From a virus (lineage: Duplodnaviria; Caudoviricetes), in the IMG/VR virus record IMGVR_UViG_3300031088_000782, positions 64,001 through 128,000 of that record: a DNA stretch of 64,000 nt; one strand, given 5' to 3'. The position numbers were made by a program, and so were the translations under genes. Position 1 is the first letter of the stretch; every line of letters begins with the position of its first letter. This document shows positions 22,429-61,122 of the stretch, piece after piece. The notes below the pieces were generated by a model that was not told where the DNA came from, made no database searches, and worked only from the letters and a program-made list of their open reading frames with translations.

Positions 22429-23853
22429 ATGCAATTAGTCATCATACTTGCCTTAGTCTATGTTATAGCTATGCCAATACTATTTCGTCTGATAGCACTG
22501 CTGCATAAAAAACTCGTTACAGACAGAGCAGCACAAAAAGCAGGGAATAATAAAGCCTTACAAAACAAAGTTCCACAACCAATATGGCGAATATGGAAAG
22601 AAAGAATCAGTTTTACCTTCAAAGACAAAAGAGACGCGAAAATAGGAAAGAAACAACTCAACCTACAAAACAGACAACTCTTTTTTATAATCTGGGGAAT
22701 AGGTCTAGCAGCAGTAGCATTAGGAGCATTCTTAGGGAACTGGAAAATTTATGTGCCATCCTACCTCATCTTCTTCTTCGCAATGGGATATGCAATAACA
22801 GCATCCAAAGACATACTCCAAAAACGAGAAAAAATGTATCGAAGAATGTTTGAAATTGCGCAATCGAAACTCGGAATATCTTCAGAATATTCCGAAAACC
22901 CACAAGCAGTCATCAGAGTATTAGAATGGGCTGACCCACTCAAACCAAACAAAGTTCAATTCGATGTGCCAACAACATTCGGACAAGAAGGCGAAGAAGG
23001 ATTCTTGCGCCAATTTAACCAAGTATTCGGAAACGAGACAGCCTGGGTGCCATTTGATGATGCAGAAAACGGAGTTCCCGGATGGAACTACGAAGAAGGA
23101 ACCGCAACATTCAGGGCTGTCCCGCCTTTGCCAACAATGGCACCGTGGGATGAACATTATGTATTGGGAGAAGGAGTTGCCTGGTCATTCTTTCCGATAG
23201 CCTTGGGCGTAGAGAACGGTGTCTCATTACCAAACCCACAAACAGGCGAAGTAGAGAATGTTTTAGGATTTGATTTATCTGGCGAACAAGTAAAAATTGG
23301 CAAAAAAGCTGGATTAGCAGTTGGGCCAGAGATTACCACTTCCCCAATGTGTTTAACAGGAGATACAAAAGTTGTTTTGGCTGATAACTCTGCAATAACT
23401 TTAAAAGATATGTCTGATTCAAATATTTCAGAATTTTTGGTAAAGAGTAATGAAAATGGAATTATTAAAAACAACATAATGAGAAGTATAATAAAAACAA
23501 GAAGCAATGCTGAAACATTAATTATTGAATTAGATGATGAGGGAATAATTAAGTCTACTTATGATCATTTAATTTATACTGACAAAGGATATGTTAAAGC
23601 TAAAGATTTAAAAACATTTGATAAAGTATTTTGTTTAGATGAAACTTATTCAACAATTATTAATATTAGTAAAGGAGAAGTTGTTGATGTATATGATGGA
23701 GAAGTAGATAAAGCTCATAACTTTTTCATCAAAACGGAGGGGCATTTAGATAATGCAGTCCAGGTTCACAATTGCTTTATCGGCGGGGGAACAGGCGGAG
23801 GAAAAAGTTTATCGGTGGATACACTGGTTGAAATTATCAATAAAGAACAGTAG
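22429..23853 (+). CDS. N-terminal part of an FtsK/SpoIIIE-like (TcpA/TraB-like) membrane ATPase with a cis mini-intein and a 15-aa split-intein N-piece
   Basis: TM segments, then FFPIALG...VLGFDLS...SPM|intein|CFIGGGTGGGK (Walker A) followed by SLSVDTLVEIINKEQ and a stop; Walker B and the rest of the ATPase are absent. Confidence 0.85.
   Translation: MQLVIILALVYVIAMPILFRLIALLHKKLVTDRAAQKAGNNKALQNKVPQPIWRIWKERISFTFKDKRDAKIGKKQLNLQNRQLFFIIWGIGLAAVALGAFLGNWKIYVPSYLIFFFAMGYAITASKDILQKREKMYRRMFEIAQSKLGISSEYSENPQAVIRVLEWADPLKPNKVQFDVPTTFGQEGEEGFLRQFNQVFGNETAWVPFDDAENGVPGWNYEEGTATFRAVPPLPTMAPWDEHYVLGEGVAWSFFPIALGVENGVSLPNPQTGEVENVLGFDLSGEQVKIGKKAGLAVGPEITTSPMCLTGDTKVVLADNSAITLKDMSDSNISEFLVKSNENGIIKNNIMRSIIKTRSNAETLIIELDDEGIIKSTYDHLIYTDKGYVKAKDLKTFDKVFCLDETYSTIINISKGEVVDVYDGEVDKAHNFFIKTEGHLDNAVQVHNCFIGGGTGGGKSLSVDTLVEIINKEQ
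23350..23772 (+). mobile_element. Cis mini-intein (141 aa, class 1, no endonuclease)
   Basis: Block A CLTGDTKV, block B KSTYDH, block F VDVYDGEV...HNF, block G VHN followed by Cys+1. Confidence 0.92.
23806..23850 (+). mobile_element. Ultra-short intein N-piece (15 aa)
   Basis: SLSVDTLVEII after Walker A GK parallels GK|ALSLDTPIPT of the DnaB intein in this window; ends at stop 23851-53 and both other frames also close. Confidence 0.75.
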
Positions 23854-23874
23854 TTTATTCTCCTCTTAAAAGTT

Positions 23875-23883
23875 GATATAATA
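23875..23883 (+). promoter_or_regulatory. GATATAAT motif (also a TGnTATAAT extended -10)
   Basis: 45 nt before ATG 23920; TTGATATAATAAGAT is also found at about 59370. Confidence 0.65.
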
Positions 23884-23919
23884 AGATATAGAAACTTTTA
23901 AATTAAGGAGAAAATAATT

Positions 23920-24891
23920 ATGGCTAAAGAAAAATATTATGGCTTTGACAAAAAATACACCGAAAAAGATGTTTGTGAAGAATATAAAAAAGGAAAATCT
24001 TTAAGTCAAATTTATAAAGACATAGGGGTAGCTCAAGTTACAACTAAAAAAATATTAAATAAACACAATATTCAAGAAAGGCAATTTCAAGTAGAATATA
24101 AAGAAGTAATTAAAGAGCTTGAAAAAGTAAGTATTGGGAAAAATGAGATATATGATTTTTATATTGTTCAAGGAAAATCTCAAAAGTTTCTGAAAGATAT
24201 GATTTTTGAGAAAACATCTATCAAAGTTGGAGACAAGGTTATTAATTCTCTTCTTAAATATTTCGAAATCAAAAAGAGTCCTGAACAAATAAAACGAGCA
24301 CAAGGGAATAAGTCTTTAAGCGAAAAAGCTTATAGTTATTCAATGCTTAAAAAAGCTGGATTTAATTCTACAAAAGAGCTTGCCGATTTTTATACAAATA
24401 ATTCAAATATGACTTATAGCGAAATTTGTGAATTATTGAATAATAAAATAGGAAAAGATGTGTTCACTCCACGTTGGCTTGGTAGGCATATGGCGAAAGA
24501 AATTGCAGAAGAAAATAAGGCTAAATCTTCTGTGTCTGAAAGGAGTTTAATGAAATATGTTGATTCAATTTATTCTGGTGAAATTTTGAAAAACAATTAT
24601 AACATTATCCCTCCAAAAGAATTAGACATTTATATTCCTGAATTTAACATTGCTATTGAATTTAATGGATTGTATTGGCATAGTGATAAGTTTATTGTTG
24701 CTAATCATGATATGACTTCTTATGACTATCATTATCAAAAATGGGAATTATGTAAGGATAAAGGAATTCAGCTTCTTTTCGTTTGGGAAGATGATTGGGA
24801 AGAGGATAAAGAAATTATAAAGAAAGCTCTTCTAGATGCTCTTAGCTTAGACAATAGAATTTTTAACCCTAAACTGTTTAGACTCGAATGA
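23920..24891 (+). CDS. Putative free-standing homing endonuclease, Vsr-like (DUF559/EDxHD-type) nuclease with HTH-like N-terminus
   Basis: ELDIYIPEFNIAIEFNGLYWHS...YHYQKWELC...IQLLFVWEDDW. Confidence 0.75.
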   Translation: MAKEKYYGFDKKYTEKDVCEEYKKGKSLSQIYKDIGVAQVTTKKILNKHNIQERQFQVEYKEVIKELEKVSIGKNEIYDFYIVQGKSQKFLKDMIFEKTSIKVGDKVINSLLKYFEIKKSPEQIKRAQGNKSLSEKAYSYSMLKKAGFNSTKELADFYTNNSNMTYSEICELLNNKIGKDVFTPRWLGRHMAKEIAEENKAKSSVSERSLMKYVDSIYSGEILKNNYNIIPPKELDIYIPEFNIAIEFNGLYWHSDKFIVANHDMTSYDYHYQKWELCKDKGIQLLFVWEDDWEEDKEIIKKALLDALSLDNRIFNPKLFRLE

Positions 24892-24971
24892 CTGACTATT
24901 ACTAAAAAAAAGAATATTGTTAAAATACTATTACTTGTGAAATTAATTTAAACAGTTAAAAAGGATGGATA

Positions 24972-27239
24972 ATGACTATTAATCTTGATAAAGAGATTAT
25001 TGAAATGTATATAGAGACAAAGAGTTTAACAAAAGTTTCGAAACATTTTAAGAGGTCTCCTGCTACTGTGAAAAGAATTTTAAGAAATAACAACGTTGCT
25101 TTAATTCCTCCTCCTTTGACTGTTCGACAAATTAATGAATTATTGGAGAAGAATAATATAACTGTGAGTGAAATTGAAAAACAGTATTCGAATAAAAGTT
25201 CTAAAGAGTTGAGATTGTGGTTGTCTGATAAAGTTGATTATTCTATTAGTCAGTCTATGATTGAAAGATTGCTGAAATTCTTGAGTATAAATAAGCCTTT
25301 TCAAAGTTTAACAACTGTTGTTGATGAGCGTTCTCAAATTTTGTTGAATGAGTGGGATTACACTAAAAACAATTGCGATATATCAGATGTTTCTATTGGT
25401 TCAAGTAAGGACTTTTGGTGGATTTGTTCTTTAGGTCATAATTTTGAAGCGAATGTTTATGATCGTTATTCTTTAGGTTATGATTGTTCTGTTTGTGCCG
25501 GAAAGATTGTTGTTGCTGGTTTTAATGATCTGCTATCAAATAATCCTGTTGTTGCTTCTGAATGGAATTATAAAAAGAACGATGATTTAAGCCCTGATAT
25601 GGTTACTACGGTTTCGGGGAAAAAGGTTTGGTGGGTTTGTAGTAAAGATAATACGCACGAATGGGAAGCTAAAATTTCTGCAAGAACGAATAAAACTACA
25701 TCTACTGGTTGTCCTTATTGCACAAATCAAAGAGTTGTAGTTGGAAAAAATGATCTGCAAACAAATTTTCCTAAAATTGCCGAAGAATGGGATTACGAAA
25801 AGAATAATGAATTAAAATCTAATCAAGTTTTTTCTAATTCTAACAAAGAGATTTGGTGGATAGGTAAGGATTGTGGGCATAGTTGGAAAAGTAGAATTTC
25901 CGATAGAATGCTTAACAGTTATGGATGTCCTTATTGTAGTGGGAAAAGAGTCTTGAAAGGGTTTAATGATCTAAGAACTACTCATGTTGATTTAGTAAAA
26001 GAGTGGGATAACGAATTAAACAATGAAAGTTTTGAAGAATGCTCATCTGGTTCTCATAAAAAAGTATTTTGGAAATGTTTTGAGAACCATTCATGGAGTG
26101 CTTCCATTAAAGATAGGGTTCGTGGGAATAATTGCCCTGTTTGCTCAGGTAGAAAACTTGTTGTTGGAGTTAATGATTTAGCTACTGTTAATCCTGATCT
26201 TGCTCTTGAGTGGGATTATGACAAGAATGGCGATTTAACGCCTCAAAATGTTACTGCTGGTGCTGATCGTAAAATCTGGTGGAAGTGCGAAAAAGAGCAT
26301 TCGTGGATCTCTGGTTTAACTAGCAGAAATTATTATCAAACTTCTTGCCCTATGTGTTCTCATTCTGGTGTTTCAAAAATGGAACAAGATTTTGGCAAAT
26401 ATTTGAAAAAGATCTACTCAGGAAACATTATTCAAAGCGACAGAACGATTTTAATGCCTAAAGAATTGGACTTTTATCTTCCTGCTTTGAATATGGCTTT
26501 TGAGTTTAATGGTCTTTATTGGCACAGTGAAGCTTCTGGCAAAGATAAAAACTACCATTATGATAAGTGGAAGAAATGTCATGATAAAGACATTCAACTG
26601 ATTACTATTTGGGAGGATGACTGGAATTTGAATCGTTCTGTTGTTGAGAAAGTTTTAGCTTATAAATTAGGCGCGTCAGAGGCAGAAAAAATTGGTGCGA
26701 GAAAGACTTATGTTGATTCCGATGTTCCTTTTAAAGATGTTGAGGAATTGTTGAATAATAATCATATTCAGGGTTCTATTTCTGGTTCTGATTATATTGG
26801 GTTGCGTTCTAAGGTTGATGATTCTTTGGTGGCTGTTATAGTACTTAGACGCTCTTTTAAGGCGACCGGAGAGCTTGATGTTGAGATTGTTCGTTATGCT
26901 ACTTCTCAAAGCGTTCAGGGCGGTTTTACTAAGCTTTTGAAACATGTTGCGAAAGAGTTTGATCCTGTGACTGTTTCTACTTTTTCTGATAATGAGATCA
27001 GTGATGGTGGATTGTATGAACGTCATGGGTTTGAAAAGGTTTATGAATTGAAACCGGATTATAAATATATTCATAATGGAGAGCGTAAGCATAAGTTTTT
27101 ATTCCGAAAAGATCGTTTTAGAGTTAATCCTGATTTATTGTTTGAAGATGGCTTAACTGAGAGTGAGCTTGCTGATTTGAATGGGTTATATAGAGTTTAT
27201 GATTCTGGAAAAACAAAATGGGTTTTAACAGAAAAATGA
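24972..27239 (+). CDS. Hef-like putative homing endonuclease: HTH region, 5 zinc-ribbon (DUF4379-like) repeats, Vsr-like nuclease, C-terminal GNAT-like domain
   Basis: Five EW(D/N)xxxN...WxC..H.W...R...CPxC repeats; ELDFYLP...EFNGLYWH; EIVRYATS..VQGGFTKLL...DSGKTKW. Confidence 0.8.
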   Translation: MTINLDKEIIEMYIETKSLTKVSKHFKRSPATVKRILRNNNVALIPPPLTVRQINELLEKNNITVSEIEKQYSNKSSKELRLWLSDKVDYSISQSMIERLLKFLSINKPFQSLTTVVDERSQILLNEWDYTKNNCDISDVSIGSSKDFWWICSLGHNFEANVYDRYSLGYDCSVCAGKIVVAGFNDLLSNNPVVASEWNYKKNDDLSPDMVTTVSGKKVWWVCSKDNTHEWEAKISARTNKTTSTGCPYCTNQRVVVGKNDLQTNFPKIAEEWDYEKNNELKSNQVFSNSNKEIWWIGKDCGHSWKSRISDRMLNSYGCPYCSGKRVLKGFNDLRTTHVDLVKEWDNELNNESFEECSSGSHKKVFWKCFENHSWSASIKDRVRGNNCPVCSGRKLVVGVNDLATVNPDLALEWDYDKNGDLTPQNVTAGADRKIWWKCEKEHSWISGLTSRNYYQTSCPMCSHSGVSKMEQDFGKYLKKIYSGNIIQSDRTILMPKELDFYLPALNMAFEFNGLYWHSEASGKDKNYHYDKWKKCHDKDIQLITIWEDDWNLNRSVVEKVLAYKLGASEAEKIGARKTYVDSDVPFKDVEELLNNNHIQGSISGSDYIGLRSKVDDSLVAVIVLRRSFKATGELDVEIVRYATSQSVQGGFTKLLKHVAKEFDPVTVSTFSDNEISDGGLYERHGFEKVYELKPDYKYIHNGERKHKFLFRKDRFRVNPDLLFEDGLTESELADLNGLYRVYDSGKTKWVLTEK

Positions 27240-27265
27240 CATTATAGAATTATGTTTTAATTTTT

Positions 27266-27997
27266 GTTGAGCCACTTGGATTGTCTAGCACAGGAAATAG
27301 CTCTACAGCTGGAAACATTGCGGCTGGGTTTGTTGATGGATTAATTGGGTTCCCTGTTGTTGAAAAAATTAGTAATTATATTTCTCCTGGTAGCGTTGAT
27401 AATTGTAGTGATGCCTATAAATATAGTGGATATGCTGGTTTTGCAGCTGGATTCATAATACCAGGTGGAGCACTTGTCAAAAGTGTTTCAGTAGCGGGTA
27501 AGATAGGTGTATTAGCTAGTAAAATAGGATCAAAAGTATCTTCTTCAATTAGCAAACGTATTGCTTTAATGAATGAAGATGGCTTTATACTAATAAAATT
27601 TAGTAAAAAAGATTTTGACAGATCTAAAATGAGCGATTTACAAGAAATAAGTAAACTAACGAGAAAAACAACGAATCAAATGAACCGAGAAATAAGAAAA
27701 AATGGTGGTAGTATATCTAATATAACTAGAGTAGACAATCCTAAAGAAATACTTGGACATAAAGAACTGCCACATGTAACATTTAAAAAGTTTAAAGATC
27801 ACGAAGTGGCTTTAAACATAGATGGATCATGGAAACATAATAAAGGAAACTACAAACCTACTAATAAGGAAATTAAATGGCTTAAAAATATGGGTTCTTA
27901 CCACCTGAAAAATAGAAACTTTGGAGACATAAATGAAAATTTTTTTACTAAGTTTTATGGATTTAATGTATGCAATATATTTCATATTAAAGTTTAA
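27266..27997 (+). pseudogene. Orphan RHS C-terminal tip with predicted toxin domain, apparently frameshifted near its 3' end
   Basis: In-frame VEPLGL just upstream of the called TTG (remnant of the DPxGL core end); Gly-rich linker (VDNCSDAYKYSGYAG); His-containing tip (PHVTF...ALNIDGSWKH); adding one A at 27884-88 restores WLKKYGFLPPEK and a stop at 27913-15. Confidence 0.7.
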
Positions 27998-28802
27998 TTA
28001 TAAAAAAGAGGAGATCCTTATAACTCACATAACAGAAGATAGAATTTTAGATATATTTAAATCCAATACTGATATGAGAAAAAGATATTTTTCAAATTTT
28101 AGATTAATGTTAATTGAAGATTTTTATGTTTTAACTACCATTAATACTTCTAATAATATAAAAAAAACTTACTTTAATAAAAATATAAGAAAAGAAAAGA
28201 ACTTTATTTTAGGTTCAATCGAAAAAGAATATGGTACTATCTCTCTTTACAAAAAAAACGAAAATTCTAAATTTTCGCTACATACGAGATTAAATAATAT
28301 TGATAACATTAACTATACAATTTTAGATAGAGTTCAAATGATTTTTGCGGGGGAATGCATTGACGATTTAACTTCTGATTTAGAAAGAAATCTATTTGAA
28401 TACAATTTAGATGTTTATTTTGGAAGTGCTGGGGAATGGTTGAATATTTATCCTAGTGAGATTGTTAAGGAAGAAATTGTTGAGCATAAAGATCTTATTA
28501 TTGATTTTTGCGATAAAAGAGATTTAGTGTTTTGTTATTCAGAAAAATATGAATATGACAAAAAACTTAAAAAACATGTTCAAAAAATTGATTCTATTGA
28601 TCCAAAGTTAGGATTCATTAAAAAAGAATCATTTGATGACTGGATTTCAATGGATGTATTCACACCAAAAACTATAACAAATGATGGAATTTTTTATCAA
28701 TATAGAACAGTTAGAGAAAAAGAAAAAGATGAATTTTTAATAGAACATATTTTTGTTCAACAGTTTAAAAACTTTAAAACAAAAATTAAAAACATTGAAT
28801 AA
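27933..28802 (+). CDS. Hypothetical protein, candidate immunity protein
   Basis: GGAG RBS; directly downstream of the toxin tip; very AT-rich. Function inferred from position only. Confidence 0.55.
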   Translation: MKIFLLSFMDLMYAIYFILKFNYKKEEILITHITEDRILDIFKSNTDMRKRYFSNFRLMLIEDFYVLTTINTSNNIKKTYFNKNIRKEKNFILGSIEKEYGTISLYKKNENSKFSLHTRLNNIDNINYTILDRVQMIFAGECIDDLTSDLERNLFEYNLDVYFGSAGEWLNIYPSEIVKEEIVEHKDLIIDFCDKRDLVFCYSEKYEYDKKLKKHVQKIDSIDPKLGFIKKESFDDWISMDVFTPKTITNDGIFYQYRTVREKEKDEFLIEHIFVQQFKNFKTKIKNIE

Positions 28803-28863
28803 ACAAATACGAATGGTTGTTGAAAAAATTAGAAAATAGTTCAATAACCATTCGTATTTGTTT
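28801..28863 (+). terminator. Long (probably bidirectional) terminator hairpin
   Basis: 24-bp stem aaacaaatacgaatggttgttgaa / ttcaataaccattcgtatttgttt between convergent genes. Confidence 0.85.
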
Positions 28864-28934
28864 TTTTAAAATAAGATTATAGATATGGGATGTTTTTATC
28901 CATTTGTTTTATTGTATGTGAAAGTTGATTTTTT

Positions 28935-29120
28935 TCAATTGGAGAATTTTTGATTTTTTAATCCGCCTTCTTCTCTGCAATCTTTTGTTGAAAGTTTTGA
29001 ACTGCTGATGTTGGTTTTATCATTGGAATTAATGGATGAAGCAGTTGCTTGTTGTATAGAAGAATTTGTCAATGTTAAGGATAGTATTATCAGTGATGTT
29101 ATTTTAATAATATTCTTCAT
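28935..29120 (-). CDS. Short secreted peptide or truncated remnant of a secreted protein
   Basis: AAAGGAG RBS and signal-peptide-like N-terminus (MKNIIKITSLIILSLTLTNSSIQQATA); only 61 aa. Confidence 0.5.
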   Translation of the reverse strand: MKNIIKITSLIILSLTLTNSSIQQATASSINSNDKTNISSSKLSTKDCREEGGLKNQKFSN

Positions 29121-29252
29121 TGCGAAAAACTCCTTTTATGATTAGAGAAACAAGATGAATAATATTTTTATATCGTTATATTTTAATTCACGTTCGATAA
29201 TTCATTTAGAAAAGATTTCATAATTGTTTAACAAATCGGTAGGAGAATAGTA

Positions 29253-30521
29253 ATGACTAAATTTCATGTGAATGTTGAGACTGGTGCCATTGGTAGGTGC
29301 GAAGCTGAAGCTGGAAACTGCCCTGTTACGGGTGAAAGCAATCATGGAGGAAATCTGCAGGAAGCGAAGCAGATTCTCGAAACTCGAATGAAAGAGAAGC
29401 ATGGTGGAAGTTTCGGGAACTCTTTGCAAAAGAAAGATAGAATTGCTGCTGTTAAGACTCGCAAATCTGTTGATGTGACTACTGATGAAATCGCAGGGCA
29501 GAAGCTTTCTAAAAGAGAAGCCGAATTCAGGTCTCGTTTTGCTGAAATGTCTGCTGATGTTGTTGCTTTGAGGGCAAAATTAGGAGATCTTTCTGTTGAT
29601 CAGGAGAAGGGGGATCCAGTTAGAGCACAAGAGTCTCTGAGAAATGCTATTTCTTTTGCTACTACTCGTGGAAACACTCATATCATGGAAAAATTGGCAA
29701 AAGCAAAAGCTATGACAACTAGTGTTATTCGCACAAACAGCGGCGATAAAATTTACTCTGATGATCTGTCTGATGTTGATAGGGCTGTGAAACACATTGA
29801 AGATGGTAGAGAATCTATCCAAGCTTCTGTTATGGCTTTGACTGATGCTCCTGTTGGAAAATATACTGAGAAAACAAAAGAGGGGACTTTCAGTATCACC
29901 GTTTCTGATGATGGAGTTAATAAAGATGAGTTTGACAAGCTTCCAGAAGATGTGAGGCAGCAGATTTCTAAGCCGAGAGAGAATTTGAGTATTGATTTAG
30001 CGCGAGATAATTTGTCGCAGGAAGATTATAATAAAATTGTTAGTCAAATTCAGGTTTTGGATTATGTAAATGGTCGACCTCGTGACATTGGATTGCAGAA
30101 TGTTCCTGTTAAAACGCAACTGTCTGGTAGTAATGACGCTGAGAAAGCACAGGATGGGGCAAGAAGTTTGGCTAATCTTTATGGAGCTTCTAAAAAACAG
30201 TTCGGGGCTAATTTCAAGGATCTGAAAAAGCAGAAAGACGAAATGTCTACTACTGTTAAACAGGCAGCTATGATCAACAGCCAGACAGAAAACACTTACA
30301 TTCCTGGTCGTTCCCGTCACAATGGTTTGATTGTCAGCGGGAGACAGAACATCAATACTAAGGTTGCTCGTGAAGTTCTGTCGAAAGAAAAACTCGATTC
30401 TATCACTAACGTCAGCCATGTCCCTGATATTGAAAAAGCAAAAGAAGTTCTTTCTGCAGAAACTTTTGATAAAATATTTAAGAATAGGAAAGTTTCTTTG
30501 AGAGTCACTGAGGCTTCTTGA
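29253..30521 (+). CDS. Hypothetical protein with N-terminal His/Cys module and internal helical repeats
   Basis: KFHVNVETGAIGRCEAEAGNCP...NH; repeats of the type IDLARDNLS / TKVAREVLS / IEKAKEVLS; AGGAG RBS. Confidence 0.8.
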   Translation: MTKFHVNVETGAIGRCEAEAGNCPVTGESNHGGNLQEAKQILETRMKEKHGGSFGNSLQKKDRIAAVKTRKSVDVTTDEIAGQKLSKREAEFRSRFAEMSADVVALRAKLGDLSVDQEKGDPVRAQESLRNAISFATTRGNTHIMEKLAKAKAMTTSVIRTNSGDKIYSDDLSDVDRAVKHIEDGRESIQASVMALTDAPVGKYTEKTKEGTFSITVSDDGVNKDEFDKLPEDVRQQISKPRENLSIDLARDNLSQEDYNKIVSQIQVLDYVNGRPRDIGLQNVPVKTQLSGSNDAEKAQDGARSLANLYGASKKQFGANFKDLKKQKDEMSTTVKQAAMINSQTENTYIPGRSRHNGLIVSGRQNINTKVAREVLSKEKLDSITNVSHVPDIEKAKEVLSAETFDKIFKNRKVSLRVTEAS

Positions 30522-30550
30522 TTTATCAATTATCGTGAAAGTTATGAAAG

Positions 30551-30820
30551 GTGAATGTTATGGAAAATGATGCATTTGTGAAGACTCTTGTTTATGATTA
30601 TGTAGATAATGGGTATGGTGAAAAAGTTGATGATTCCACTATTCGTTCTTCAGTGAATGATAATGAGTTGTCTTTTGAACCACTTGCTGATGAGGATGGA
30701 AAGACTGTTGGTATTAATGTGTTTACTAATGGTGTTATGACTGTTTCGGCTAAATACACCGATAAAGATTTTGTAGAGACAGTAAATCTTTCAGTTCTTT
30801 CAGATTTGGGTGTTCTCTGA
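30551..30820 (+). CDS. Small acidic hypothetical protein
   Basis: 89-aa ORF; ATG 30560 with AAAGGTG RBS is the likelier start. Confidence 0.65.
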   Translation: MNVMENDAFVKTLVYDYVDNGYGEKVDDSTIRSSVNDNELSFEPLADEDGKTVGINVFTNGVMTVSAKYTDKDFVETVNLSVLSDLGVL

Positions 30821-30845
30821 CATTCCTGATTGTGTTATATTTTTT

Positions 30846-30891
30846 ATTCCCTCCGTAGATATTATTTTTATATAGTATTTGCGGAGGGAAT
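30846..30891 (+). terminator. Hairpin containing a GATATT motif
   Basis: attccctccg / cggagggaat outer stem plus T-run; GATATT at 30858, 46 nt before ATG 30904. Confidence 0.7.
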
Positions 30892-30903
30892 TTTAGGTTT
30901 AGA

Positions 30904-31767
30904 ATGAAATATTTACCGTGGAATAGATTACAGCTTGATTCTCAGCTGAACAATGGGAATCGTGTGTCTAAGCAATCTGTAAGTTTCAGTGTTTATCGAA
31001 CTTTTAAAAAGAAAATGAGCTGGACTCCGATGATTATGAACAATGGTGCAGTTTTTTATGGAGAAGATGAGACACAGATTGATGATTTTCTTGAAACTAT
31101 CCTTTCTCAATCGAAAAAATTTGAAGAGTCTGTAACGATAGCCTTATATGACTTGCGAGAGCATCAGAATAACGCTTTTGAGGCTTTAGAATCGAAGTAT
31201 CGAGTATTTGAGTATCATCCTTATAAAAGCGATTTAAAAACGCTGATAAAGGATTTTGTAATTTTCAGAAATGAGATAAAAGAGAAGACTCAGGCGTTGG
31301 GATTGGTTGAATCTCCACATAGAAAAATTTTGATTCCTATATTTTTGTTGGATAATGATCAAGTTTCTGTTTTGAGTAACGACAAGTTAAGTAAAATTTT
31401 TCAACATTTTTTAACAGAATCTTCTTTTGAGCGAATTTTTCCTTTTGTTATTGCTCCTTTTGCTGAATCTTTTCCTGAAGATATTGTTAAAGCTTTTCAA
31501 TGGTCTGCTTTTTTGGGTTCAGATAACGCTTCTGTGTGCAGAAAAAAAATATATCCTGACAAAGAGGATAGTTTTTACAGTATTCGGCAAATAGTTATTG
31601 GAACTCTTTACACACGTTTGACTGCACGATTGACAGTTATTCATCCTTATAAGTTTACTCCGTCTGAATATTATTTCAAAAAGGAGCAGCAACTCAAAGA
31701 TGAGGACGAAAATTACAATAAGTTTCTTGATATGTTAGATGATGGAACAGTTAGAGATAGGGTTTGA
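30904..31767 (+). CDS. Hypothetical protein resembling a catalytically degenerate FtsK-like P-loop domain
   Basis: Motif order (AVFYGEDETQ, IALYDLR, EIKEK, IFLLDND, IFPFVIA) follows the FtsK layout but GKS and DE are absent. Confidence 0.5.
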   Translation: MKYLPWNRLQLDSQLNNGNRVSKQSVSFSVYRTFKKKMSWTPMIMNNGAVFYGEDETQIDDFLETILSQSKKFEESVTIALYDLREHQNNAFEALESKYRVFEYHPYKSDLKTLIKDFVIFRNEIKEKTQALGLVESPHRKILIPIFLLDNDQVSVLSNDKLSKIFQHFLTESSFERIFPFVIAPFAESFPEDIVKAFQWSAFLGSDNASVCRKKIYPDKEDSFYSIRQIVIGTLYTRLTARLTVIHPYKFTPSEYYFKKEQQLKDEDENYNKFLDMLDDGTVRDRV

Positions 31768-32396
31768 AAATGAGTATGAAAAAGTTTGGGGATTTAGAGG
31801 TCGGTGACGTTATTCTTGGTGCTGATAATCAAGATGTTGAGGTTGTCAAAGTTTATGATGAACATATTCCCGAAAAAATGTATGAGATTGAACTGGATAA
31901 TGGTGAGGTTGTTAAAGCTTCTGGAAATCATCTCTGGTATGTTGAAACAGATTTTGATAAAAGTTTTCATAGAGAGCGAAAAAGGCTGGGCAAAAAACAT
32001 TTCGGAAAGTTAAATAGTGAGATTATGGATAATTTAGTATCCATTTCTGAAAGCGAAGATGAAATAGAAACAGGACTTTTGGATGTTGTTAATCTTTGCG
32101 AAATTGATTTGACCAACTATGAAGCAATAAATGTTTTAGAGAGAATTGCTGCATCTTTGGGGCATGTTGCCGAAAATGATTCAGAGCATATTGATTATCT
32201 TACCGGCGAATCAATGAATAAAAAAGAGGCGGTTCGTTCTTATGATGCTAAACTTTTCACACAACAGGTTCTTTCTATTACGGGAAAGAAGCCTTTTGTG
32301 AAAAAATACCCGTTGATTGTTGGACGAATTATGAATACTGAACAGATGATTGAATATGGAGACGGATTAGAGATTCCTACATTAAATAAACTTTAA
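31764..32396 (+). CDS. Stand-alone intein (HINT) middle fragment lacking block A and blocks F/G
   Basis: MSMKKFGDLEVGDVILGADNQDVEVVKV...MYEIELDNGEVVKASGNHLWYVET aligns with the DnaB intein TTMGELNIGDKVLGRDG...CYHVIFNNGETITADADHRWITET; ends IMNTEQMIEYGDGLEIPTLNKL; likely start ATG 31770. Confidence 0.85.
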   Translation: MKMSMKKFGDLEVGDVILGADNQDVEVVKVYDEHIPEKMYEIELDNGEVVKASGNHLWYVETDFDKSFHRERKRLGKKHFGKLNSEIMDNLVSISESEDEIETGLLDVVNLCEIDLTNYEAINVLERIAASLGHVAENDSEHIDYLTGESMNKKEAVRSYDAKLFTQQVLSITGKKPFVKKYPLIVGRIMNTEQMIEYGDGLEIPTLNKL

Positions 32397-33217: not shown

Positions 33218-33255
33218 TAAGAGAGTCGATCTTTAAAAATAGATCGGCTCTCTTA
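33218..33255 (+). terminator. Terminator-like hairpin
   Basis: taagagagtcgatct / agatcggctctctta. Confidence 0.8.
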
Positions 33256-40924: not shown

Positions 40925-43225
40925 TTGGAAGGGGAAAATTTACTAATGGCGAATAATGATAGAGAGCTATACTTGCAAGCACAAAGAAGGCTTGTTGCTT
41001 CCTTGGTGTATGACGGGACAAGCGCAACAAGAGTTTTCGAATTAGTTGGTCCTCAAGATGTTGATGAACCCGCGCTGGAACTTATCATTACCGCTATTAT
41101 GACTCTGGCCCGACAAGATTCAGAAATTTCCGTAATTTCTATTGGTAAAGAACTGGAAAAAGAAGGCCTTCTTGCTCAAGTTGGAGGAATTTCAGAGCTT
41201 AACGCTTTGCGTATTGAAGGCGAAAGATACAGACTTGAAGCTCCATCTGAACTTTATGCAAAAATTGTTCGAGAATCAAGCGCAAAAGACAAACTTGAAA
41301 CATTGCTTGTTGACTCTAAAGACACATTTAGGGATGATTCTGGAATGTCTGCTGTCGATGCTATCTCAAATCTTCAATCAGAACTCAGCAACGCACTCTA
41401 TGGGCTGTCAGACGATTCAACAGTGGTTGATGTAAGTGATTACATGGAAAGCTATTTTAACGTCTTAGATGAGCGTTTAAAGGTGAGTAAAGAAAATGAA
41501 GATAAGGCAGATGGTCTTCAAGGCATTCCAAGTCTTGTTCCCACTCTCAATAAGTACACAAACGGATGGCAGGCGCAACAACTTATTACAATTGGAGCGA
41601 GAACTGGTGTTGGAAAAGCTCTTTCTCTTGATACTCCGATTCCAACTCTTAGCGGTTGGACAACTATGGGAGAATTGAACATTGGGGACAAAGTTCTAGG
41701 AAGAGACGGAAAGCCAACAACTGTTGTTAATGCTACAGAAGTTCAACTTGAAAGAAAATGCTACCATGTTATTTTCAACAACGGAGAAACAATCACAGCT
41801 GATGCAGATCACAGATGGATCACTGAAACGTCTGATAGTAATGGACAGGAAAGCGTTAAAACAACACAAGAAATTTTCGAAACATTGCATAATGTAAAAG
41901 GCTCTCCAAATCATTATATTTCAGCTACTTCTCCGATTAATTTTGGATTAAAAGAGCTTCCTGTTGAACCTTACTATTTAGGATACAGAATATATCACAA
42001 TGATATCAAGGATATTTTTCCTAATTTTGATATATATGATTTGAATTCTATTGAAAAGGATTTTATTCCTGCAGTTTATTTGCGCTCTTCTGTTAATCAG
42101 AGAAAGAGTCTATTGAGGGGCATAGTTGACGGACTCAAAAAATCAAACATCTCAGATGAAATTATTCTTGAATTTGAGAAAAAAGAACTTTCTGAATCTG
42201 TTTTTGAATTACTTAGTTCATTAGGATTAATTGCTTTTATTTCTGAATCTAACAGTAAGATTGAGATTCGCTTTTCGTCTGAATCATATTTTAATCTTAT
42301 AAAAAACAAAAAGAATAACGAAAAATTTATTATTGAATCTATTGTTGAAGTTGATAGTGTTCCTGTTAGATGTATTCAAGTAGATAATGAAGATCACATG
42401 TATCTTGCTGGAAAAGCTATGGTGCCTACTCATAATACTGTTTTTGCTATTATGTCATTAGTAGCAGCGGCTCGGGCTGGAAAAGCTGTTTTGTTCTTCT
42501 CTCTGGAAATGGATTATCCTGAGATTATTGACAGAATTGTTGCTTGCATGTCAGGTGTATCTCAATCAAAACTAAAAAATGGAAGATTGAGCGAAGAGGA
42601 AGTAGAGCTTGTTGTCAAAGCGCAGACTGAACTTAAAGATTTAAAAATAATCATTGATACTGACCCTAAAGCAACTGTTGATTCTATCAGGTCCAAAGCT
42701 TTCAAAGCGGCTCAGTCACCAACTGGATTAGATATGATTATTTTGGATTATCTTCAGTTGATAACCCCTGTGGGACGTTATTCAAGCAGGCAAGAGGCTG
42801 TTTCGGACATGTCAAGAAATATGAAACTTACAGCGAAAACTTTGAATGTTCCTATTATGGTTCTTGTTCAGCTTAACAGAGCACAAGGTGACGAGGATGA
42901 TGATAAGTTACCTACTTTGGACAATATTCGTGAATCCGGAGCTATTGCTATGGACTCTGATATTGTTGTTCTTCTTCATAGAGATGCAACACAAGATGAT
43001 ACGACTCCACAGACCATAGTCATTTTAGAGAAAAACAGAGGTGGAGAGTCTAAGAAGCTTATCAGATGTCATTCTAATCTTGAATGTTCTTTATTCAGAG
43101 AAATAAAACGAGAAAAAGAAACTTCTGAAAGATTAACTGATGAAGAAATGATGGAACTGGAAGATGACATTGATTTAAGTGATTTTCCTGATCTTGATGA
43201 TGACATTGATCTGCAAGATTTGTGA
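40925..43225 (+). CDS. dnaB: Replicative DNA helicase DnaB with intein
   Basis: GARTGVGK|intein|TVF, FFSLEM, ILDYLQL, LVQLNR, IRESGAIAMDSDIV, EKNRGG; start may be ATG 40946. Confidence 0.95.
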   Translation: MEGENLLMANNDRELYLQAQRRLVASLVYDGTSATRVFELVGPQDVDEPALELIITAIMTLARQDSEISVISIGKELEKEGLLAQVGGISELNALRIEGERYRLEAPSELYAKIVRESSAKDKLETLLVDSKDTFRDDSGMSAVDAISNLQSELSNALYGLSDDSTVVDVSDYMESYFNVLDERLKVSKENEDKADGLQGIPSLVPTLNKYTNGWQAQQLITIGARTGVGKALSLDTPIPTLSGWTTMGELNIGDKVLGRDGKPTTVVNATEVQLERKCYHVIFNNGETITADADHRWITETSDSNGQESVKTTQEIFETLHNVKGSPNHYISATSPINFGLKELPVEPYYLGYRIYHNDIKDIFPNFDIYDLNSIEKDFIPAVYLRSSVNQRKSLLRGIVDGLKKSNISDEIILEFEKKELSESVFELLSSLGLIAFISESNSKIEIRFSSESYFNLIKNKKNNEKFIIESIVEVDSVPVRCIQVDNEDHMYLAGKAMVPTHNTVFAIMSLVAAARAGKAVLFFSLEMDYPEIIDRIVACMSGVSQSKLKNGRLSEEEVELVVKAQTELKDLKIIIDTDPKATVDSIRSKAFKAAQSPTGLDMIILDYLQLITPVGRYSSRQEAVSDMSRNMKLTAKTLNVPIMVLVQLNRAQGDEDDDKLPTLDNIRESGAIAMDSDIVVLLHRDATQDDTTPQTIVILEKNRGGESKKLIRCHSNLECSLFREIKREKETSERLTDEEMMELEDDIDLSDFPDLDDDIDLQDL
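41618..42436 (+). mobile_element. Class 3 intein (273 aa) with decayed LAGLIDADG endonuclease
   Basis: Ala1 (ALSLDT), block B ADADHRW (Trp), block F VPVRCIQVD (Cys), block G VPTHN (Thr), Thr+1; both LAGLIDADG motifs eroded (YYLGYRIYHND, LLRGIVDGLK). Confidence 0.92.
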
Positions 43226-44496: not shown

Positions 44497-46842
44497 ATGT
44501 CAAAGAGAAAAGACGAAAGAAATTATATGCAGATTGATGAATTTTTCAGCAACACAAATTTGGAGCTGAATTCACAAGAGGCAAAAAAGAAAGCTGGATT
44601 CTTTAAGAAAACTGGAAGCTTCTTCATGCTTATCGTATGTGCCTCTGTTATGGGTGCTTTAATCAGCGTTCCAGGAATAGCTACTGGATCAACTATTGCA
44701 CAAGTTTCTGAACCCGTAGTTGACATGTGGAAAAACTACCCTGAAGAGTTAGATAATATTTCTATTGCTGAAAGAAATATACTTTATGATAAAAATGGGG
44801 ATGTCTTCGCTCAGGTATGGTCAGAAGATAGAGTCTCTGTAGAGGGGCTTGACGAAATAAGCGATTATGCAAAAAAAGGATTGATTGCAACAGAAGATAA
44901 AAGATTCTATGAGCATAATGGTTTTGACATCAAAGGTACAGCAAGAGCTGCGCTGAAAGGCGGCGGCGGTTCCGGCATTACTCAGCAGTTAGTTAAAAAC
45001 CTACAGTTTTATAATATGGCCGGTAAAGACAAAAAAGAAAAAGCCATCGAGGTTTCTTATCAAAGAAAGGCTAAGGAACTTAAGCTTTCATTAGCCTATG
45101 AAAAAACTCATTCAAAAGACGAAATTCTTCTTCAATATTTCAATACAGTTGCTTTTGGAAATCCCAATATTTATTCAATTGAAGCTGCTTCTCAGTATTT
45201 TTTCGGGAAACCAGCTAAGAATCTCAGCCTTGCAGAATCAGCCATCCTTGTAGGATCTGTGCAAAATCCGGTTAAATACAACCTTAGCAAAGACGAATCT
45301 AAAGATTTGTGGAAAGAGCGACAGAAAATTGTCCTCAACAGGATGGTTTCAGAAAAATATATTACTCAAGACGAAGCTGATGAAGCTTACAAAGAAAAAA
45401 TCAAACTTGTCAAAAAGAAAACCTCAGCAGGAAGCTGTGTTTCATCAAAATACCCTTTCTATTGTGATTATGTTATGGGATATTTGAAAAAATCTTCTAA
45501 GCTTGGAGAAACACAAGAAGAACGAGATGCTATTCTTGCAAAAGGTGGATTGCATATCAAAACATATATGGATCCGAAAGTGATGAAAGGCATTGATAAA
45601 CAGTTGGAAAATGATTTTGGAAACAAAAATCGTGTTGTTGCTCCTGCAGCTGTTGTTCAACCGGGAACTGGTGGAGTTTCAGGGTTTGGGGTCAATAGAG
45701 AATATGGATCAGGTAAAGGCAAGACTACTATCAATGTTCCTGCTAACAAGTCAGGAACAGGATCCGCTTATAAACCGATAACTTTGGCCGCAGCTTTGGA
45801 AAGTGGAATGAAAGAAAGCGATTTGAATTTCAGTTCATCTTGTCCTTTGAATCCTGGTTCCCAATATGATGCTCCTGTGGGTGGATTCAAGAACTCTAAT
45901 GGTTGTGGTTTTCAATCTGGAAAACTTGACTATGAACAAGCTACAGCATGGTCATCTAACACCTGGTATCTAACGCTTGCAATGAAAACAGGAATGAATA
46001 ATGTTATTGACATGAGTAAAAAACTTAATTTGAATGTTCCAGAAGGGACTTCAGAACGAAGCCTTGCTCTTGTTATAGGTTCAGCAGAGAACAGTAACAT
46101 CGACATGGCTGCGGCTTTCGGAACTTTTGCAAATGAAGGTGTCTTTTGCCCTGCAACACCTGTGGCATCTTATGAATATGCGGATGGAACTTCTCCCGCT
46201 GTTCCCGATACGTACGATCCTTCAGAAACATCATGTAGGCGTGTTATGAGTCCTCATACTGCATCTGTAGGGTTGAAAGCTATGCGAGCAAATACTTATC
46301 CAGGACATGCTAAATCTCCTTTCGGTGTTGCAGCAAAAATTAAAGGATATGACGCTGTTGGAAAATCAGGAACAAACCAGAATTACAACTGGACATGGGT
46401 TCAGGTTTCCAAAGATTATTCAATGTTCTTCAATATTTATGACATGGATAGGGTTTCTAATGGGGTCAAAGGAATGACTTATAAAGGAAGTTTCACAAGT
46501 AAAAACATCTCCACTAAGGCCGGGTCTGATGTTCTTCGCAGTATTGTCAAAGAAACAAATGCAAAGAGCAAAAAACTTGATTATAACAATAAGGATAGTA
46601 GTTTGAAGCCAGTTCCAGTTGAGACACGAGATTACTTTACAATCCCTTCCACTTTGGGAATGAAACCTGCTGAAGCTCTTTCTGCAATGAAAGCATTAGG
46701 AATTAATGCTTATGTCAGTAAAGAGAAGAGACCTGCATCCAAAGGTTATCCTGAAGGTGTCATCATTGAACAATCTCTTGACCCAGGGTTGCAATTGCCT
46801 GTGGGGACAAATAAAGAAGTAATTCTATATATGTCTGAGTAA
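44497..46842 (+). CDS. ponA: Class A penicillin-binding protein (GT51 transglycosylase, transpeptidase, PASTA)
   Basis: ATEDKRFYEHNG, GGSGITQQLVKN, RKAKE, KDEILLQYFN; SAYK, SSN and KSG catalytic motifs; C-terminal PASTA-like repeat. Confidence 0.93.
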   Translation: MSKRKDERNYMQIDEFFSNTNLELNSQEAKKKAGFFKKTGSFFMLIVCASVMGALISVPGIATGSTIAQVSEPVVDMWKNYPEELDNISIAERNILYDKNGDVFAQVWSEDRVSVEGLDEISDYAKKGLIATEDKRFYEHNGFDIKGTARAALKGGGGSGITQQLVKNLQFYNMAGKDKKEKAIEVSYQRKAKELKLSLAYEKTHSKDEILLQYFNTVAFGNPNIYSIEAASQYFFGKPAKNLSLAESAILVGSVQNPVKYNLSKDESKDLWKERQKIVLNRMVSEKYITQDEADEAYKEKIKLVKKKTSAGSCVSSKYPFYCDYVMGYLKKSSKLGETQEERDAILAKGGLHIKTYMDPKVMKGIDKQLENDFGNKNRVVAPAAVVQPGTGGVSGFGVNREYGSGKGKTTINVPANKSGTGSAYKPITLAAALESGMKESDLNFSSSCPLNPGSQYDAPVGGFKNSNGCGFQSGKLDYEQATAWSSNTWYLTLAMKTGMNNVIDMSKKLNLNVPEGTSERSLALVIGSAENSNIDMAAAFGTFANEGVFCPATPVASYEYADGTSPAVPDTYDPSETSCRRVMSPHTASVGLKAMRANTYPGHAKSPFGVAAKIKGYDAVGKSGTNQNYNWTWVQVSKDYSMFFNIYDMDRVSNGVKGMTYKGSFTSKNISTKAGSDVLRSIVKETNAKSKKLDYNNKDSSLKPVPVETRDYFTIPSTLGMKPAEALSAMKALGINAYVSKEKRPASKGYPEGVIIEQSLDPGLQLPVGTNKEVILYMSE

Positions 46843-59415: not shown

Positions 59416-61122
59416 ATGACTGAAAAGAAAATGTTGAATAATTATCCAGAATTAATTTCAGAATGGGATTGGGTTAAAAATCAAAAATTAAATGTTGATG
59501 AACTTTCTTGCGGAAGCAACAAAATAGCTTGGTGGATATGCCAAAAAGGACATTCTTATGATTCAAAAATTTCGACAAGATTTAAAACTAAAGGATGTCC
59601 ATATTGCTCTAACCAAAGAATATTAGCTGGATATAATGATTTTGAAAGCCAGCAATCGGATCTTATGAAATTTTGGAATTTTTCAAAAAATACAGTAAGT
59701 CCTAAAGAAATTAGTCCAAGAAGTGGCAAAAAAGTTTGGTGGATTTGCGAAAGAGGACACGAATATCAAAGTTCACCTCATTTAGTATCCACAGGAAGAA
59801 AATGTTTGTACTGTTCAAATAAAAAAGTATTAACTGGATTCAATGATATATTAACAGTCAATCCTCTTTTACTAAATAGGTGGTCTGATCGTAATTCTCT
59901 ACCAATAACTGAATATCTTGCTGGAAGCAACAAAAAAGTTTGGTGGATTTGCAAAAAAGAGCATGAATTTGAAGCACCAATTAGAAATATGGTAAAAAAT
60001 CCTGACATTTGCGCTATTTGTTCAGGGAAAAAAGCCCTTTCTGGTTTTAACGATCTTTCTACTATAAGACCAGAGCTTTTGGAGTTCTGGGATTTTAAAA
60101 AGAACAAATATTTACCTTCAGAAGTAACAATTGGTAAATCCTCTGACAAGACTTACTTTATTTGCAAGAATAAACATTCTTTTTCTATGACTCTTGCTGA
60201 TATCAATCAAGGTAAATGGTGCTTACAATGCTCTATTGATTCTTATGTTTCAAAACCAGAAAAAGAAATTTATGAATTTTTAAAAAGTTTATTTAATGTA
60301 AACATAGAGCAATCAAGCAGATCAATCATCTCTCCTTACGAACTTGACATATATTTACCTGATTTTCAAATAGCTATTGAATTCAATGGGTTATTTTGGC
60401 ATAATGAAAAATATATGAAAATGACAAATAAAAAAAATATACAATATTACCATTTCAATAAATGGAATATGTGTAGAAAACAGGGGATTCAGCTTATCAC
60501 TGTTTGGGAGGATGATTGGCGAGATAATAGAGATGTTGTCAAAAGCATGATTGCTCATAAACTGAATTTTTCAAGTAATGCAAAAATTTATGCAAGGAAA
60601 ACTGTTGTTGAAAAAATTTCGGCAAGTGCTGCAAAAACTTTCCTCAATTCATATCATATTCAAGGATTCAAAAATGGGTGTGCGAACATTGCTTTGAAGT
60701 CTCTTGATGGAGAAATTGTCGCTGTGTCTCAATTATCTTTCAATAAGGGAGAATGTTCTATTGAAAGATATGCCACTTCGTGTAATGTTCCTGGTGGATT
60801 CACTAAAATTGTAAAATATATTGAGAAAACATATTCTGAAATTGGTTCTATTTCAACGTTTTCTGATAATGAAGTTAGTGATGGTGGTTTGTATTCGAAT
60901 AATGGCTTTGAAGTTGATTATTTTGTCCGACCTGATTATAAATACATTTATGAGAACAAACGTTTTCATAAATTCAATTTCAGAAAAATTCGTTTTGAAA
61001 AGGATCCTGAATTGTTATTTGAAAAAGATTTGACGGAAAATCAATTGGCTGATTTGAACAATATCCCCCGCATATGGGATTCAGGAAAAACGAAGTATAT
61101 AAAGAAACTCAATAGAGAATGA
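59416..61122 (+). CDS. Hef-like putative homing endonuclease with 4 zinc-ribbon repeats
   Basis: Four DUF4379-like repeats, ELDIYLP...EFNGLFWH, ERYATS...GGFTK, WDSGKTKY. Confidence 0.8.
   Translation: MTEKKMLNNYPELISEWDWVKNQKLNVDELSCGSNKIAWWICQKGHSYDSKISTRFKTKGCPYCSNQRILAGYNDFESQQSDLMKFWNFSKNTVSPKEISPRSGKKVWWICERGHEYQSSPHLVSTGRKCLYCSNKKVLTGFNDILTVNPLLLNRWSDRNSLPITEYLAGSNKKVWWICKKEHEFEAPIRNMVKNPDICAICSGKKALSGFNDLSTIRPELLEFWDFKKNKYLPSEVTIGKSSDKTYFICKNKHSFSMTLADINQGKWCLQCSIDSYVSKPEKEIYEFLKSLFNVNIEQSSRSIISPYELDIYLPDFQIAIEFNGLFWHNEKYMKMTNKKNIQYYHFNKWNMCRKQGIQLITVWEDDWRDNRDVVKSMIAHKLNFSSNAKIYARKTVVEKISASAAKTFLNSYHIQGFKNGCANIALKSLDGEIVAVSQLSFNKGECSIERYATSCNVPGGFTKIVKYIEKTYSEIGSISTFSDNEVSDGGLYSNNGFEVDYFVRPDYKYIYENKRFHKFNFRKIRFEKDPELLFEKDLTENQLADLNNIPRIWDSGKTKYIKKLNRE

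Follow-up and report, generated by a model that had tools for sequence, protein, structure and literature searches.

The subject of this report is an FtsK-like ATPase of a giant tailed-phage-like element (Duplodnaviria; Caudoviricetes) from a phyllosphere metagenome, together with the intein that interrupts it. The stretch analysed (the window) is 64,000 nucleotides long and forms part of the 309,534-bp IMG/VR record IMGVR_UViG_3300031088_000782 (G000:C1:64001-128000). An earlier note, made from the letters of the window, had proposed that the FtsK-like gene ends in the first 15 residues of an intein, that a separate open reading frame (ORF) downstream supplies the middle of the same intein, and that a third gene should carry its end fused to the rest of the ATPase. 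The main features, with lengths in amino acids (aa), are as follows.

22429..23853, + strand: FtsK-N gene, 474 aa, from the ORF and its translation.
23350..23772, + strand: intein 1, a contiguous mini-intein (CLTGDT...VQVHN) with a +1 Cys; PT-HINT PF07591, E 1.4e-8.
23773..23805, + strand: 11 extein residues, CFIGGGTGGGK (Walker A as far as the Lys), between the two inteins, from translation.
23806..23853, + strand: N piece of the putative intein 2, SLSVDTLVEIINKEQ and the TAG stop; block A, S1-type split.
31770..32396, + strand: middle (M) piece of the putative intein 2, 208 aa, stand-alone (ORF 31764/31770-32396).
G000:C1:202050-203198 (= L001:1381-2529), + strand, outside the window: FtsK-C gene, 382 aa, with a 40-residue C-terminal intein piece (IntC) followed by the rest of the FtsK domain.

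The FtsK-N gene encodes, in this order, N-terminal membrane segments, a conserved N domain, mini-intein 1, the Walker A motif and the 15-residue N piece of intein 2. The C-terminus reads ...VQVHN·CFIGGGTGGGK·SLSVDTLVEIINKEQ (raised dots mark extein-intein boundaries), with the 15 codons of the N piece (23806-23850) directly after the Walker A GGGTGGGK and a TAG at 23851-23853; translation bears out the early stop described in the earlier note. The N piece includes the block A typical of intein (HINT) domains, here S-L-S-V-D-T-L-V. At 15 residues and with block B absent, it is not the canonical N-terminal piece (IntN) of an S0 split, which has ~100 aa and carries blocks A and B on the N-extein. 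The family has 192 homologues at E<=1e-10, and the counts given here are from the best 120 listed. Walker A and a short block-A tail form the C-terminus in 119 of these 120, none with block B. The 119 tails range from 11 to 60 residues (median 17 aa) and have the motif S83/A36, L102, S/A, V, D82 (D/N), T115, L/P, V90/I27, x, V88. Two homologues from independent assemblies (P0153 and P0154) are likewise 474 aa each, with the tails SLSADTLVKIVNKKQ and SLSVDTLVEIINKKQ. Intein 1, which lies 11 residues upstream of intein 2, is found in 19/120 FtsK-N homologues and is missing in exteins of 85-92% identity, P0156-P0160 having SPM-A/V-F.GGG where the site here reads SPM·C...HN·C-F. From this sequence comparison, intein 1 looks like a recent gain or loss polymorphism.

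The M piece starts at the ATG used by its closest homologue (208 aa), opens with MSMKKFGDLEVGD and closes with ...GLEIPTLNKL. It holds block B (ASGNHLW) and is without block A, blocks F and G, a terminal His-Asn and an extein; translation and alignment agree on this with the earlier note, as they do on an end equivalent to that of a canonical IntN. The layout comprises the HINT strands that follow block A, block B (SGNHLW), a helical insert and a strand that ends at the canonical endonuclease-site split. The insert, of ~120 residues (31950-32330; M residues ~62-185), lies between block B and the last N-lobe strand, includes the invariant residues R127, S131, G133, Y160 and Q168, and is homologous to the region after block B of contiguous FtsK inteins. 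An independent assembly (P0001) encodes a 208-aa M piece of 97% identity, and 30 homologues of 203-243 aa (40-97% identity) start within a few residues of one point. In the alignment of 31 M-piece sequences, S53, G54, N55, H56, W58 and Y59 are invariant. An exhaustive M-family profile search of 1.84 billion representatives returned 964 matches at E<=0.001, with 78 cluster representatives at E<=1e-30; ~87 representatives are stand-alone M pieces (median 218 aa), and SG.HL.Y is found in ~83/87. Compared with relative L020, the M piece has 31 synonymous and 7 non-synonymous changes, for a ratio of non-synonymous to synonymous substitution rates (dN/dS) of 0.047. The middle ORF is under strong purifying selection and belongs to a large stand-alone family; the relaxed selection that the earlier note had named as damaging to its proposal is not seen.

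The M piece is related to inteins by sequence and by predicted structure. In tblastn, it matches inteins of helicases and terminases from phages (E as low as 2e-7), and the M-family profile matches residues 16-68 of MchDnaB-1, M. smegmatis DnaB inteins and gp41-1 (E 1.7e-6 to 3e-4). A Pfam scan of the M piece gave only a sub-threshold Hint match (E 0.003); recognition of the piece needed the tblastn and profile searches. The best PDB matches of the M-piece model (predicted local distance difference test, pLDDT, 81.6) are the MchDnaB-1 and M. smegmatis class 3 DnaB inteins, with a root-mean-square deviation of 1.6-1.8 A over 55-56 residues; in this Foldseek search against the PDB nothing reached E<=0.001, the intein matches being of high probability but extending over only 55 residues. 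Fold matches of the insert are weak and point to MarR/winged-helix-like regulators and to a PI-SceI domain I-like fold. Matches to the PHROG 'terminase large subunit', obtained with the M piece, DnaB and two other ORFs, were rejected as signs of terminases and are ascribed to inteins inside the profiles. Two further ORFs of the genome (C1:61461-64274 and C1:239796-243005) also match the M profile, and inteins are probable there.

The end of intein 2 was located by a PF01580 search that covered the whole record. One FtsK domain is present, at 202 kb, and the match begins at profile position 53, just past Walker A. The N-terminus of this FtsK-C protein consists of a short strand, ARCIEVDSPDRLF (block F), AFVTHN (block G), Ser+1 and VVQRNIIFGAI, with Walker B later in the sequence; blocks F and G, the terminal His-Asn and the +1 nucleophile all fall on residues 1-41. 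The 40-residue IntC resembles the C-terminal pieces of S0 splits, which have ~35-50 aa on the C-extein and are encoded by a separate gene. An IntC stands at the start of 102/120 of the best FtsK-C homologues and is 40 aa long in 79 of the 102. Among these 102 proteins Ser+1 is universal (102/102), Cys F:4 is found in at least 96, and position G:5 is Ser in 64 and Thr in 38. With the intein removed, GGGTGGGK and S-VVQRN would make up a complete P-loop (Walker A and its helix). The IntC-FtsK gene called for by the proposal is, in short, present 106 kb downstream of the M piece, and both related complete records have it as well. The ORF at 30904-31767 was considered as the missing C-extein and rejected: it encodes an FtsK-like fold but is without IntC and without Walker A, and the true FtsK-C lies elsewhere.

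The N, M and C pieces are single-copy, lie on one strand and map to 86.4, 95.8 and 202.1 kb of the record (N 86429-87850; M 95770-96393; C 202050-203195). In both other records rated 100% complete (G001 and G002) the pieces also follow each other as N, M and C on one strand, the M-C spacing being 116 kb and 95 kb, respectively; the synteny check proposed in the earlier note, thus, came out in its favour, as did the search for relatives with an unbroken intein. Three full-length FtsK homologues from the profile search (P0361, P0367 and P0374) have a contiguous intein of 553-657 aa, with a LAGLIDADG endonuclease domain, at the same GK·...HN·S site, and their exteins are homologous to FtsK-N (E 7e-12) and to FtsK-C (43% identity, E 2e-88). 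The M piece aligns from residues 12-18 of these inteins onward, most of the insert included, and IntC aligns to the last 35 residues. The DnaB of the window (40925-43225) contains GK·ALSLDTPIPTLSGWTTMGELNIGDKVLG in its P-loop, and alignment to its intein sets the N piece on residues 1-12, M residue 7 on residue 18 and IntC residues 3-40 on residues 239-273 (the end). The middle ORF begins where the intein would continue, as the earlier note had read from the same DnaB intein.

Local alignment of the 15-mer N piece to the contiguous FtsK inteins returned noise positions only. The 15-mer is too short for this method, and its placement, therefore, rests on the motif, the DnaB intein alignment and the homologue P0395. 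In P0395, which is an FtsK-N homologue (40% identity, E 2e-35), GGGK is followed by ALDLDTIIPLADGS and then by a region 37% identical to the M piece, and the protein ends at the canonical split point; N and M, in other words, form one gene with the make-up of an S0 IntN.

An N piece, an extein-free M piece and a C piece, encoded by three separate genes, tile the contiguous inteins without gaps. The split points correspond to two sites at which inteins have been split by engineering, S1 (between strands 2 and 3, after ~11-12 residues) and S0, the endonuclease site (PMC3620165, PMC11923092), in accord with the claim that the intein is cut at both sites. The three-part layout is kept in relatives down to 40% identity, with more than 100 protein clusters per piece, and the piece ends recur in more than 100 independent assemblies. 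Synteny, conservation and selection together exclude recent decay and assembly error, including an error at 23853 or 32396, which had been a worry of the earlier note. No close relative was found among the INPHARED phage records. In some relatives the same FtsK is interrupted a third time, past Walker B, by an intein (GVK·S...HN·S/T-EEGK, with a block F Cys) that is contiguous in P0075 and P0066, split in P0140 and P0148, and has no counterpart in G000; in these relatives the ATPase would be assembled from still more pieces.

Class 3 inteins are marked by a non-nucleophilic residue 1, the residues Trp B:12, Cys F:4 and Thr G:5, and a Ser or Thr at +1; they are found mostly in ATPase P-loops, and Ser1 or Cys1 is noted in 3/37 triplet-bearing inteins (PMC2807308). 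In this genome the triplet is distributed over two proteins, with W58 on the M piece and C16 and T38 on FtsK-C, the +1 residue is Ser, as in all 102 IntC-bearing homologues, and the insertion site is an ATPase P-loop. Trp B:12 is present in 59/83 M-piece cluster representatives. Residue 1 of intein 2 is Ser here, Ala in 36/119 homologues and Leu or Ile in the contiguous relatives; a residue that varies in this way is unlikely to be an essential nucleophile. These sequence features suggest that intein 2 is a class 3 intein. The contiguous 273-residue P-loop intein of the window DnaB (40925-43225) is also of class 3 type, with GK·ALSLDT (Ala1), HRW, RCIQVD and PTHN·T.

The FtsK ATPase is quite probably formed from two precursors that are joined by protein trans-splicing via an intein encoded in three genes; the sequences show the genes, how they fit whole inteins, and that they are conserved and under selection, and we infer the assembly, chemistry and any regulatory use of the pieces. 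A membrane-anchored FtsK/TcpA-like ATPase would be made as two precursors broken inside the P-loop, between Lys and Ser. Three polypeptides, split at S1 and S0, would come together as one HINT domain, to which the M piece would bring block B (Ser53, His56 and Trp58) and the other missing parts of the N lobe. Block B on M is proposed to activate the Lys-Ser1 bond, with block F Cys16 of FtsK-C as the attacking residue (the class 3 route). The N-extein would then be handed on to Ser+1 (Ser41 of FtsK-C), the terminal Asn40 would cyclise, and an O-to-N shift would yield GGGTGGGK-S-VVQRN with the P-loop completed. Mini-intein 1 would have to splice in cis as well. The likely origin is a contiguous LAGLIDADG class 3 intein that was broken first at the endonuclease site and a second time after block A; free-standing homing endonuclease genes are still found at both breaks.

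Several points weigh against trans-splicing by this route. Assembly from three bodies, one of them of 15 residues, may be inefficient. Trp B:12 is swapped for Phe, Leu, Ile, His, Met or Val in roughly one M cluster out of four. Residue 1 is Ser here, so that the class 3 route is suggested by the relatives and by the Trp/Cys/Thr triplet and is not demanded by the sequence. The two-piece relative P0395 is known from a single 1.96-kb contig. Structure prediction of the three pieces together, a check put forward in the earlier note, was carried out with FtsK-N 434-474, the M piece with its alignment (the scored partner) and FtsK-C 1-70. The mark was passed, if weakly, with an ipSAE of 0.48 vs. 0.00 for the best control, a partner pLDDT of at least 79 and at least 92% of contacts common to the runs. 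The mark is reached by 58/80 solved complexes and by 2/110 mismatches, and passes of 0.60 or less are often wrong unless the guess is already likely. The three-chain prediction, as a weak pass, is compatible with the proposed assembly and lends it weak support but is not decisive.

The surroundings of the N and M pieces hold the following features, which enter into the alternative explanations.

23920..24891, + strand: free-standing homing-endonuclease-like gene directly after the N piece; phrog_3339 E 1.3e-34, phrog_559 E 4e-20.
24972..27239, + strand: second homing-endonuclease-like gene, with five DUF4379 zinc fingers and a nuclease core; PF14311 E 4.9e-83, phrog_3339 E 1.2e-87.
30846..30891, + strand: terminator-like hairpin with a 20-pair stem, from a consensus scan, just upstream of the ORF287/M pair.
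30904..31767, + strand: 287-aa FtsK/EssC-like ATPase-fold protein (ORF287), no Walker A match; AlphaFold model, pLDDT 79.6.

The N-to-M gap measures 7.9 kb and holds eight ORFs here; in G002 it is 5.3 kb long, with a gene on the opposite strand among its contents. In G001 the ORF287/M gene pair comes directly after the N-piece gene, and a stretch of ~7 kb is extra here. The endonuclease-like gene at 23920-24891 is not at the corresponding place in relative L003, and the IntC gene too has endonuclease-like ORFs on its flanks. Other free-standing homing-endonuclease-like genes with DUF4379 repeats are scattered in the window (e.g., 59416-61122, 61159-63096 and 23920-27239). ORF287 stops 2 nt before the M-piece ATG, an arrangement of translational coupling; the pair is also found in L003, L016, L017, L019 and L020, and ORF287 is not just upstream of the M piece in L015 and L022. 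Foldseek relates the ORF287 model to the ATPase domains (D2/D3-like) of EssC, EccC, TcpA, HerA and FtsK (E 1.4e-7 to 1e-5), and a Pfam scan of ORF287 gave no match. Judged from this model, ORF287 may serve the spliced ATPase as an inactive partner subunit. Together with a Bax1-I gene, ORF287 and the M piece lie between terminator-like hairpins at 30846-30891 and 33218-33255, which come from a consensus scan in which hairpins are no more numerous than in shuffles; the promoter count from a scan of the window is not above shuffles either. RNA runs that contain the locus were looked for and not found.

Of the alternative explanations, a non-covalent scaffold fares best and is nonetheless improbable. 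In this scenario the three pieces would assemble without splicing and hold FtsK-N and FtsK-C together, such that the ATPase is a non-covalent complex. That FtsK-N alone ends in a formally complete GGGK-S in 83/119 homologues, and that Trp B:12 is not universal, would suit such a scaffold. The conservation of residues that serve the chemistry only (Cys F:4, the terminal His-Asn, Ser+1 in 102/102 and the block B Ser/His in ~83/87) would not, and the P-loop and its following helix would stay on separate polypeptides unless ligated. In addition, the 36/119 homologues with Ala after the Lys leave FtsK-N alone without a Walker A Ser/Thr.

It is more doubtful still that the middle ORF, though derived from an intein, serves some other purpose, such as DNA binding via the insert or partnership with the pseudo-ATPase ORF287, and is dispensable for the joining of FtsK. 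Both termini of the M piece fall exactly at the gaps that N and IntC leave, and the invariant residues of M are the catalytic ones of block B, whereas a 15-residue N piece and a 40-residue IntC, without block B and most of the HINT fold, would have no active site alone. Such a job would be in line with the stop-start pairing of the M gene with the 287-aa ATPase-fold gene in five relatives and with the conservation of the ~120-residue insert and its weak MarR/winged-helix-like and PI-SceI domain I-like fold matches; the pseudo-ATPase neighbour, however, is not beside the M piece in L015 and L022.

A gene broken by endonuclease-gene insertions and now heading for loss is very hard to reconcile with the data. 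While two homing-endonuclease-like genes right after the N piece, others flanking the IntC gene and an N-M stretch that differs in content among relatives might be expected of decaying remains, the frames are intact, the motifs are conserved in all three pieces, the dN/dS of 0.047 signals constraint and the three-part layout reaches down to 40% identity in more than 100 protein clusters per piece. Finally, a misassembly, an intron or stop-codon suppression that fuses N and M in one polypeptide can be dismissed for practical purposes: the genome has a tRNA with anticodon TTA and the N-M gap of L003 holds only one gene, but read-through past the TAG at 23851 meets a TAA after 16 codons, N and M are separated here by 7.9 kb and eight ORFs, and in G002 by 5.3 kb with a gene on the opposite strand, and the piece ends are reproduced across many independent assemblies.

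Returning to trans-splicing as the preferred explanation, a tentative and rather unlikely extension is that the M piece is a dedicated, separately controlled splicing cofactor, which would turn maturation of the FtsK-like translocase into a three-input switch. The M piece would be co-translated with the pseudo-ATPase near FtsK-N, while FtsK-C is encoded 106 kb off, and the P-loop would be completed covalently only where all three meet, for example, at the membrane during motor assembly.

The sequence data support the view that intein 2 is split into three pieces in nature and has class 3 features; so far, three-piece layouts have been reported from engineered inteins only. Three-piece split inteins have been engineered from Ssp and Rma DnaB (Sun, Yang and Liu 2004, as cited in PMC11923092) and from Npu DnaE and gp41-1 (bioRxiv 10.1101/2023.01.30.526203). 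The engineered versions resemble the present system in an N piece of ~11-15 residues, an extein-free M piece, a C piece of ~40 residues and breaks at S1 and S0 (PMC3620165); they differ in being laboratory constructs of class 1, whereas the intein described here is natural and conserved, has class 3 features and carries a ~120-residue insert in M. In 2023 it was stated that no intein in more than two fragments had been demonstrated in nature, one reason being that short fragments are difficult to recognise (bioRxiv 10.1101/2023.01.30.526203). A literature search brought up neither a natural three-piece intein nor a split intein in FtsK; its coverage was incomplete, and an unseen report is possible.

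AceL NrdHF is the first and only reported natural split class 3 intein, and none was split among 1701 class 3 inteins (PMC7891396). Like AceL NrdHF, intein 2 comes from a phage-like metagenomic source, has a Cys in block F and Ser/Thr at +1, has a residue 1 that is probably non-nucleophilic or dispensable, and is broken at the endonuclease site, where a homing endonuclease gene lies (PMC7891396). The two pieces of AceL NrdHF (98 + 48 aa) are encoded by adjacent genes, and its triplet is MCT; by contrast, intein 2 has three pieces with the C piece ~100 kb away, a W-C-T triplet and an FtsK-like ATPase as host. The closest solved relatives of the M piece are among the class 3 DnaB P-loop inteins (MP-Be DnaB, PMC2807308; MchDnaB-1, PDB 6rix; M. 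smegmatis DnaBi1, PDB 6bs8), which share the ATPase P-loop insertion, the Trp/Cys/Thr triplet and Ser/Thr at +1 but are contiguous and splice in cis. Natural atypically split inteins have a short IntN of ~15-25 aa (PMC11923092). Like these, intein 2 has a very short N piece, with block A only, at the end of the N-extein. In atypically split inteins blocks B, F and G lie in one long IntC on the C-extein, whereas here this portion is divided again, the larger share being extein-free and the block B ORF having no blocks F and G. A two-piece atypical (S1) split with halves 7.9 kb apart was, in addition, considered and rejected, as the block B ORF has neither blocks F/G nor an extein and blocks F/G are 106 kb away. 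The present system resembles fractured genes (Dassa et al. 2009, PMC2677866) in that an intein marks the point at which a phage gene is broken and free-standing homing endonuclease genes lie there. In fractured genes two intein halves reportedly flank one endonuclease gene at one locus; here there are two breaks and the last piece is far off, the C piece lying 106 kb away and not at one locus round an endonuclease gene.

The element carries RecA, DnaB, RecG, class I ribonucleotide reductase (RNR), single-stranded DNA-binding protein and PBP1-type genes. The last of these (44497-46842) encodes a class A penicillin-binding protein with transglycosylase, transpeptidase and PASTA domains and has RecA, MoxR/VWA, ClpB-like, RecG and RNR genes as neighbours. 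Outside the window, G000:C1:145134-178814 holds 66 tRNA genes and a transfer-messenger RNA gene, and the tRNA with anticodon TTA in that block is a possible ochre/amber suppressor. An identical FtsK-C protein (P0033) is encoded on a 681,645-bp contig, and relatives have their pieces on contigs 670-730 kb in length; the 'provirus' record, of 309 kb, may therefore represent only part of a far longer replicon. Because L003 and L004 repeat each other in reverse, record G001 (437,576 bp) resembles a mirror-image assembly.

Natural inteins are known as the products of one or two genes, and three-piece inteins have been constructed in the laboratory as logic gates and as tools for peptide ligation. 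If intein 2 splices, it would offer protein engineers pre-optimised parts, with the 15-residue N piece and the 40-residue IntC as tags and the M piece as a free activator protein. Splicing would also mean that HINT folding from three chains is evolutionarily stable, and that a natural route leads from contiguous to two-piece to three-piece inteins, with living examples of each stage. The whole family, with its more than 100 protein clusters per piece, appears to keep the three-piece design under selection.

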